64,000 nt of DNA, taken from assembly GCA_965112155.1 (NCBI GenBank), contig OZ218099.1. One strand, written 5' to 3'. The DNA is from Podarcis liolepis (Eukaryota). The notes below the pieces were generated by a model. The model worked only from the letters and a program-made list of their open reading frames with translations. It ran no database searches and was not told the origin of the DNA. A program made the position numbers and the translations under genes. Below are positions 21,100 through 24,000 of this stretch, piece after piece (position 1 is the stretch's first letter; every line of letters starts with the position of its first letter).

Positions 21100-24000
21100 T
21101 GTTTAAAAAGAGAGACAGAGACCCATATGTTGACTTGGGTAAGAAATGCGATGGCCATTTAGCTCTGTTGTGACAAATCCATGAAAATGGAGGACCGCCG
21201 TATACCATATAAGGTAGGATGCTAACTTGACCTTCACTTTGTAATGGCGGCCCCCGCCCACCCAGACAGACTGTTGTAAACAGAAGTCATCCGACCAAAA
21301 AAAAAAAAAAAAAAAAAAGATTAGCACCGGGCAGACAAGGTCTCGCAGAATTGCTAACACATTTGCTGGTTTTTAAGCTGCGGCAAACGAGGTACAATAT
21401 TCTCTGAACTACAGTAGGGGACGGAGTGGGGGTGGGGGATGGAGGAGGAGGAGGAGGAAGAAGAAGGGGGGCGGGCCTCATCATTGGAGATCAACAAAGG
21501 TCTCCCCAGATCTTTAGTTTGCTGTATTAAAGGGTTGTTAAGAAGGGGTCTTCCAACGCCGGGCTTCGTATAGATTACAGCGTCCGGAGCTGTTGTTGTT
21601 GAATGTGGCCTTGAGGTAGATCGAGGGTGGTAGGGTGACTGGGTGGGGGGTGGCCGGCGCTTCTCTTAATGAAATTATCCGTCCAGATTCTTAAAAAAAC
21701 CAGCAATTCTTCATTATGATATCGACGAGGACGGACGATTTACGAATTCACTCTAATTTTAATGCAGGAGGTCATTTCAGAAAATCGCCTCTTCTTTTAT
21801 TTAAATCTATAGAATGTTTTGTTTACGTCAATCTGAAATGGAAAGTGTAAAAAGAAAGCGCGTGTAGCCTTCCTTCTTTCCTTTTTAAGGAAGGCAACGA
21901 GGGTCTCCTGACTCGCCATTTCCGCAGCAGCCAAATCACAACAGTGGCAAAAAGTTTACCAGAGTGCAGAAAACAGGTTTAGTTTTGCTTTTCGAAATAC
22001 TGTGTTTGGGCCCAGGAAAACGCTCGGTCCGTGATTGCCAGTGCGGGGAGTTCAGCCTTGTATGGTGATGGCGGCTGTTTGCGGGGGTGGGGGGGTGGGA
22101 GGGAGGCGGAATCGAGACTGTACCTGATCATATAATATAATTTATTTAGCATATCTTTTTCCTTGTCAGTTACCTAGACATAATGGAGCGCTCTCGAGAG
22201 ACGGGTCATGGATCCCGATCCACTGCACGTATTAAGCGATCGTCTCCATTTAAGTCATTTTATTCCCCTTTAAACCAACCGAGTAATAATGGCTCCCAAG
22301 TTATTGCATCTTTCACAAACTCAGAACTTTTAAAATCAGCGCCGCATACTTCACTGATGCAACGCCGCCAGTCGTTTATATAGATGAGTAACTAGGAAAG
22401 GCACGACCAAAGACCAATTAATTTCAGCGAGGAAGAATTAAGCACGTGCTTAATCGACAACAAGGGGACTTACAAGCGCTTCACTTTGGCTGGATCCTGC
22501 CCTTTCAGGAATACAGAGGAGGCAGTAAACTATAGGTATTGTTAGGCTGATATTGTATCCCTACATTCTGACGCAGATAACTGGCATAGCTAGCAGAGCA
22601 TGTTTGTTTGCTTGTTTGTATGTTTATTTGTGTGCGCGCGCGTGCGTGGAGAAACACAACAGTCTAATCAGACTCACCATAAGCATGAAAAAGGATGAAC
22701 GTGTTCAAGTCTCTGTCGGCAAACACAACCACCTTTTGCCCGGTCTTGGCGGGCTAATCGTCGCCTTCATTTCAAAGCTGCCAGCTCCCTTTGATTTTAG
22801 CAGCAGCTACTGGGAGGTGTGTTTTGTGGGTGTTTTAAAGCCCTTCGTTTGGTGGCCCTACGTGTACCTCTGAGACGGAGTACATGCGTTCTCCTTTGTC
22901 ATTTACATCTAGAGCTCTGGATTTGTTCCTTTGAATATTATTTATTCCTTTATTCCTATGGCTGCTTTGTATGGCCCCTCACTGCTCCCAAAAGTTGCAC
23001 TACCACGCAAATGCATGCAGAATGTGCAGATATTTTGCCCCCACTCAGTCAGGAATTCTCGAGGGACACAAGGGGTGCCGGCAGCAGGACTTTGCTGATT
23101 GTGCAACCTTTAAAGGACAATTCGGTGGAACTCACTCCTCAACTGCAGTAAATGGCAGAGCTCTCGCAGATTTTGATGGTGAGTCTGGAAGGCGCTCGCT
23201 GTTATTAGGACTGCCTCCTACTCCACCCTATTTCATATAATAATAATACTAATGATTCTTTCTTTCTCAAAACCTCACACAGCCTCATAATAGATTAATA
23301 GTTCTTCATCACAATGAGATGAATTTTCACATGCCCTTTAATTATCATCTCATCTCCAGCGAACACTGGTTCTAGAGAAGGTAAAGGGGGGGGTATTGGA
23401 TACAACTACAAAGTTGGTCCCCCCCCCACTTGGGAAGATTAATGTTGGCTGTGATTCTTAAAAGATCTTCAGATATAGCCCAGGCTGCTTGCATAACAAC
23501 AATCAACAAGGCCTTCATCACATCACTTTATTAAAGGGGGAAAGTATTTTTAGCCTGTCTGTTCCAGACCCAGCCAACCATAAACAAAGATTCTTAAATG
23601 CAAATGCGGTCTTATTTGGGTTCCAGAAAGGCAAATGAGATTTCTAACTTTTGGGCATGCCATAAAAGGAGAGTTTTTAAAGTCACCTTCACTCTTAATT
23701 ATGGGAAAGCCCTAGCGTTTCCAAATATAGGAAAACGACTCAGTCCAAGTTAAGCGTCAACTTGCTTCTGAGTAAAACTGGCTAGGATCCGGCTGCAAAA
23801 TTTATCGCTTTCAAGTGGGAGATATTTAAACACCTGCTTTGAAGTTGCAGTTATAGGCAGACACATTTACTTGGGAATAAGTAAATAAGGGTAGGATGAG
23901 GGAGCACATCTCTCTGAAATCTATAGAACTCCATAGCCCTTAACTCGAGCTAGACTGTGTGCACATTTCCTTTCAAATTAAGGTTATTGGGAATAATAAT

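Follow-up and report, generated by a model that had tools for sequence, protein, structure and literature searches.

The locus raises the question of whether a lizard carries a counterpart to HOTAIR, a gene for a long non-coding RNA, and, if so, what has preserved it. We analysed a window of 64,000 nucleotides of Podarcis liolepis (contig OZ218099.1 of assembly GCA_965112155.1), in which a first-pass annotation had recognised a HOTAIR-like internal exon with an antisense splice donor in a reptile HoxC cluster. Three posterior Hox genes are encoded on the minus strand of the window:

8890..11258, minus strand: HOXC11 (flanking), with a DUF3528 exon and a homeodomain exon; named from its domains and gene order
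34644..37088, minus strand: HOXC12 (flanking), with an exon 1 matching the Zootoca vivipara Hox-C12 cluster and a homeodomain exon
49228-52972, minus strand: HOXC13, with HoxA13_N and homeodomain; named from its domains and gene order

Over 93% of the query, exon 1 of HOXC12 is 100% identical to a Zootoca vivipara cluster named Hox-C12; identity is 95% to king cobra and at most 84% to full-length bird matches. An exact look-up of the proteins returned 0 of 3. The exon 1 match together with the Hox gene set identifies the window as the HoxC cluster of a lacertid-type lizard, and the earlier assignment to a reptile HoxC cluster is thus borne out by Hox domains, gene order and the Zootoca match. 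The HOTAIR-like blocks lie between HOXC11 and HOXC12 on the strand opposite to the Hox genes, which is the position of HOTAIR in mammals. The gap between the two genes (11342-34644) is about 23 kb, compared with 21.5 kb for the entire human HOXC12-HOXC11 span including both genes, and its length agrees with the reported expansion of squamate Hox clusters. An assembly gap is present at about 56980-57125, and the window contains 145 N.

The features of the proposed HOTAIR counterpart are as follows:

21108..21213, plus strand: homologue of mouse Hotair exon 1 and the 3' portion of human HOTAIR exon 4 (Rfam HOTAIR_3; exon number inferred from published descriptions, among them PMC3102750)
21139..21145, plus strand: second, competing donor-like sequence (7.4 bits), 75 nt upstream of the main donor
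21214..21221, plus strand: GT splice-donor sequence with the 8-nt spacer, a candidate donor in the lizard from its spacing and a score of 8.6 bits
21222..21253, plus strand: HOTAIR conserved non-coding element (32 nt), orthologue of the published one, 30/32 to the human HOXC copy
24186..24251, plus strand (Rfam reports minus): block with homology to Rfam HOTAIR_2, probably belonging to the terminal exon
24296..24333, plus strand: weak Rfam HOTAIR_1 match in the expected order
24740..24745, plus strand: AATAAA poly(A) signal, a candidate 3' end and the sole canonical signal on this strand in 24200-25300

Comparison of the human HOXC element (Table S1 of PMC7139118) with both strands of the 64 kb revealed 30 of 32 identical bases at 21222-21253, the next best placement reaching 20 of 32. 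The 40-nt human HOTAIR oligonucleotide of the same paper (Table S4), aligned by eye to 21220-21260, agrees at 39 of 40 positions with one inserted base. The element starts at 21222, exactly 8 nt after the end of the exon-like block at 21213 (GT at 21214), and the same spacing between splice site and element is given for human in the Fig. 1 legend of PMC7139118 and for mouse in the Supp. Fig. 1 legend of the preprint 10.1101/250621. The lizard sequence therefore shares with the element of Nepal et al. 2020 (PMC7139118; 10.1101/250621) its bases, its site between HoxC11 and HoxC12, its anti-Hox strand and its 8-nt spacing. It differs from the human copy by an A for C at 21243, which leaves a homeodomain-type TAAT core at 21242 in the lizard, and by one extra base near the 3' end; two positions of the element are described as lineage-specific in PMC7139118. 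The first-pass annotation had suggested that the block may include a vertebrate-wide HOTAIR element duplicated in HOXD, a suggestion that the 30/32 match supports. Its quoted strings were found at 21142-21156 and 21184-21213, followed by GT at 21214-21215, and its three short motifs at 21227-21234, 21242-21247 and 21275-21282.

According to PMC7139118 the element has a paralogue in HoxD and occurs in a range of jawed vertebrates that runs from elephant shark to human and takes in turtle and alligator; Table S1 of that paper places the two mouse copies at mm10 chr15:102947454-102947486 and chr2:74679612-74679644. The 37 species in its Table S1 include no squamate, and the supplementary alignments of that paper may already show a lizard. 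The preprint 10.1101/250621 describes about 175 nt of flank kept across vertebrates except teleosts, and maps the exon-equivalent sequence flanking the element in fish and tetrapods. By sequence, the lizard block is the orthologue of the end of HOTAIR exon 4 with the adjoining 32-nt element. It is a new species' copy of a known element, as the deep vertebrate conservation of the block and its flanks was published in 2018 and 2020.

The Rfam search extended the homology to a second region. HOTAIR_3 was the top of 14 matches in 20800-21600 and covered 21108-21212 (E 1.8e-4 at 29.9 bits, against a gathering score of 80). Closest to the donor, the sequence agrees with the model at 23 of 28 positions, and agreement is weak beyond model position 70. 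HOTAIR_2 (47.5 bits, E 1.5e-9, gathering 60) and HOTAIR_1 (22.9 bits, E 0.23, gathering 44) ranked first and second by E-value among eight matches in 22300-24800. The three matches are collinear, so the exonic homology of a HOTAIR gene is present in order, although each match falls below its gathering score and no Rfam match reaches that score. Both the proposed HOTAIR homology and the collinearity with a terminal-exon-like block thus withstood alignment, with HOTAIR_1 as a weak member. HOTAIR_4 and HOTAIR_5, which we take to represent the side of the PRC2-binding 5' exons, gave no match at E up to 10 in 11300-34700 or in 18700-21100, and the 5' region of HOTAIR was accordingly not recognised there. 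Other Rfam matches (mir-297, mir-466 and similar) were rejected as they lie on microsatellites or have weak E-values. HOTAIR_1, HOTAIR_2 and HOTAIR_3 all match the minus, Hox-sense strand, opposite to the HOTAIR RNA. Since the HOTAIR-sense oligonucleotide of PMC7139118 reads on the plus strand, the Rfam models were presumably derived from the Hox-sense strand, apparently the wrong one.

Just downstream of the element, the CpG observed/expected ratio is 0.83-1.27 in four 200-nt windows (21600-22400) with a GC content of 40-52%, suggesting an unmethylated region. Right after the candidate poly(A) signal, the sequence at about 24770-25400 resembles by eye what we take to be fragments of squamate interspersed repeats.

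Mouse Hotair has two exons, corresponding to the second half of human exon 4 and to exon 6 (Schorderet and Duboule 2011, PMC3102750). The recognisable blocks of the lizard are likely the same two regions, the end of human exon 4 and part of exon 6, with no further Rfam match on the 5' side. Whereas RNA and splicing are shown for mouse Hotair, the lizard counterpart is known from DNA, in which acceptor and start site cannot be placed. Compared with the six exons of human HOTAIR (He et al. 2011, PMC3103462; Rfam RF01904-RF01906), the lizard matches three Rfam regions collinearly, but all below gathering and with none for the two other regions. He et al. considered HOTAIR to be restricted to mammals and to have arisen in marsupials, from a search of 13 genomes, none of a lizard, and a 2021 review gives orthologues for mammals only. 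At the level of sequence, the lizard matches and the 2020 paper contradict a marsupial origin. As for transcripts, Table S1 of PMC7139118 marks a HoxC host transcript in coelacanth, and RT-PCR of HOTAIR has been reported in tammar; the literature searched, with most subscription journals outside it, yielded no report of a squamate HOTAIR RNA.

The donor GT at 21214 scored 8.6 bits, and 23 of 3194 plus-strand GT sites score as high. These scores come from unfitted frequency matrices; as controls, the donors of HOXC11 and HOXC13 scored 4.97 and 9.08, the HOXC12 donor (36523) lying beyond the range scored. The donor-like sequence at 21139-21145 sits inside the exon-like block and is missing from the mammalian Rfam consensus in the HOTAIR_3 alignment; splicing from it would leave out the conserved end of the exon. 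In the 154 nt upstream of the donor at 21214 no AG scores above 0.3, though a first exon would need none, and candidates further upstream score 4.6 to 8.9. Nine acceptor-like sites with a score of at least 7 are found in 21260-24300, and with several candidates the acceptor cannot be fixed from the sequence. No long coding frame is present, as for the HOTAIR lncRNA: the longest ATG frames are 54 aa (20700-21213) and 89 aa (21890-24760), and a coding function was rejected. A conserved RNA structure was rejected as well, as none of four folds of the two blocks reached a z of -2 (z from -1.52 to 0.79). A sequencing-run look-up with 20600-24760 placed the stretch in 6 of 22 listed rows from four organisms, their kind not on record, with no RNA run listed; this outcome was given no weight for or against expression. 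The first-pass annotation had taken the two collinear blocks together as suggesting a spliced antisense transcript. However, the best-conserved part is intronic and enhancer-like in print, so donor conservation alone is no proof of splicing. We put the use of the donor at 21214 in the lizard at about even odds.

What preserves the block is suggested by the distribution of conserved positions. Inside the intron 39 of 40 positions agree, whereas the exon side shows 23 of 28 close to the donor, with identity fading some 70 nt upstream. A peak just inside the intron favours a DNA regulatory element over constraint on an RNA, for which exon-level selection predicts the reverse. We therefore favour, with a probability of about 0.65, that the block persists mainly as a cis-regulatory DNA element, predicted to bind transcription factors and to tune posterior HoxC expression. 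In HoxD, the paralogue retains the 32 nt without the flanks (PMC7139118). In human and mouse, the element carries DNase sensitivity, p300, H3K4me1/H3K27ac and bidirectional CAGE, which are marks of a poised or active enhancer (PMC7139118), and a region overlapping the mouse Hoxd copy drives reporter expression in the limb, as cited in the same paper. Deletion of mouse Hotair left Hoxd unchanged but altered Hoxc11 and Hoxc12 in cis, the former expanding rostrally (PMC5157951).

Against the cis-regulatory reading, the authors of the deletion ascribed the gain of Hoxc11 to read-through of AntiHotair rather than to the loss of a binding site (PMC5157951), and deleting the Hoxd copy is cited in PMC7139118 as having had no phenotypic effect. 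In addition, a strong donor at the exact spacing, a second block 3 kb away and the poly(A) signal would also suit selection on a transcript. We consider it less likely that HOTAIR was already a spliced RNA in the amniote ancestor and that selection on its splicing or processing chiefly preserves the block, and rate this lower than the mere use of the donor in the lizard. In the lizard, such an RNA would be spliced from 21213 to an acceptor lying upstream of 24186, with its 3' end near 24760. The rank of the correctly spaced donor, the two regions that are likely the mouse exons, the nine acceptor-like sites followed by one poly(A) signal, and the transcripts in coelacanth and tammar speak for it, but it has to accommodate the intronic position of the best conservation and the competing donor 75 nt upstream, as well as the 154 nt upstream of the donor lacking any AG above 0.3, an objection that lapses for a first exon. 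The unmatched HOTAIR_4 and HOTAIR_5, the unexceptional folds and the dispensability of mouse Hotair (PMC5157951) weigh in the same direction.

The model of PMC7139118, in which HOTAIR that retains the intron reduces HOXD11 by pairing with a non-coding transcript of HOXD11, draws on nanomolar binding of the human oligonucleotide pair in vitro and on a negative correlation of expression, both in that paper. The HOXD oligonucleotide of Table S4 is, however, the reverse complement of the sequence given for HOXD in Table S1, from which we infer that the complementarity arises by default from duplication and opposite transcription. Use of the donor would take the element out of the RNA, teleosts retain the HoxD copy without a HoxC partner (PMC7139118), and Hoxd was unchanged on Hotair deletion (PMC5157951), so we consider action in trans very improbable as the cause of conservation. 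Least credible of all are similarity by chance and neutral survival in a Hox cluster that evolves slowly, in favour of which one could cite the three Rfam matches below gathering score. Chance is refuted by the 30/32 match against a background of 20/32, together with synteny and exact spacing; moreover, just three HOTAIR-family blocks occur in the 23 kb interval, the remainder being unmatched by these models.

Under the cis-regulatory reading, we propose the following course of events, by extension from mammals. The chromatin of the element would be open, forming a poised or active enhancer in a roughly nucleosome-sized region straddling the donor, and antisense transcription would pass through it in posterior embryonic tissue. 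Where the donor is used, a mouse-like two-exon RNA would probably result, secondary to the function of the DNA. More speculatively, a repressive nuclear receptor on a core of the element might keep Hox11 off until the trunk-to-tail switch. The candidate site is:

21222..21233, minus strand: imperfect DR0 nuclear-receptor element, a candidate NR6A1-type site, with a perfect first half-site and two mismatches in the second

This DR0-like site lies within the first 13 bases of the element, which are common to human HOXC, human HOXD and the lizard. DR0 sites with at most two mismatches number 53 in the window, nine of them better than that of the element, and the chance per given 32-nt stretch is about 1.7% for a motif that was chosen post hoc. 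Other nuclear receptors could use the same half-site. The sole perfect DR0 of the 64 kb is at 40328-40339 on the plus strand, 3.2 kb upstream of the HOXC12 start codon, and is a stronger NR6A1-type candidate than the site in the element.

NR6A1 (GCNF) recognises a direct repeat of AGGTCA without spacer (PMC10909835, PMC12957460), on which it acts as a repressor. Loss of Nr6a1 shifts Hoxd11 rostrally and up-regulates Hoxc12, and putative NR6A1 ChIP sites are reported in all four Hox clusters (PMC9755267), the text passages and supplements searched giving no coordinates for them. Whether NR6A1 represses posterior Hox genes directly is named as an open question in PMC10909835. The HoxD element, between HoxD12 and HoxD11 (tested by Beckers 1996 and 1998, as cited), has the same first 13 bases including the half-site, but its site is the promoter region of a non-coding HOXD11 transcript in sense orientation, and it has flanks that are not homologous to those of the HoxC copy. 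The ENCODE factors named at the element in PMC7139118 are CTBP2, CHD1, SP1 and YY1, with no nuclear receptor among them; neither 'motif' nor 'nuclear receptor' occurs in the text searched of the preprint 10.1101/250621, and no paper in the literature searched connects NR6A1 to the element. The core common to the HoxC and HoxD copies is thus a candidate NR6A1 target with modest statistics. The full proposal would be that a mouse-like two-exon HOTAIR was present in the ancestor of amniotes, and that NR6A1 represses directly through its oldest part, the piece duplicated in HoxC and HoxD, so as to delay Hox11 until the trunk-to-tail transition. We regard this as a long shot; if true, NR6A1 would be tied directly to posterior Hox timing, a link so far missing, and redundancy would explain why deletion of either copy alone does little.

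With this copy, lizards join the published list of species. A squamate still shows recognisable counterparts of the donor and of both mouse-exon regions, at odds with the earlier idea of a marsupial origin for HOTAIR. The locus also gives exact targets for two questions, namely the splicing of HOTAIR outside mammals and the ancient core as a nuclear-receptor site. Direct repression of posterior Hox genes by NR6A1, if true, would matter for the evolution of the body plan, including the trunk length of squamates.
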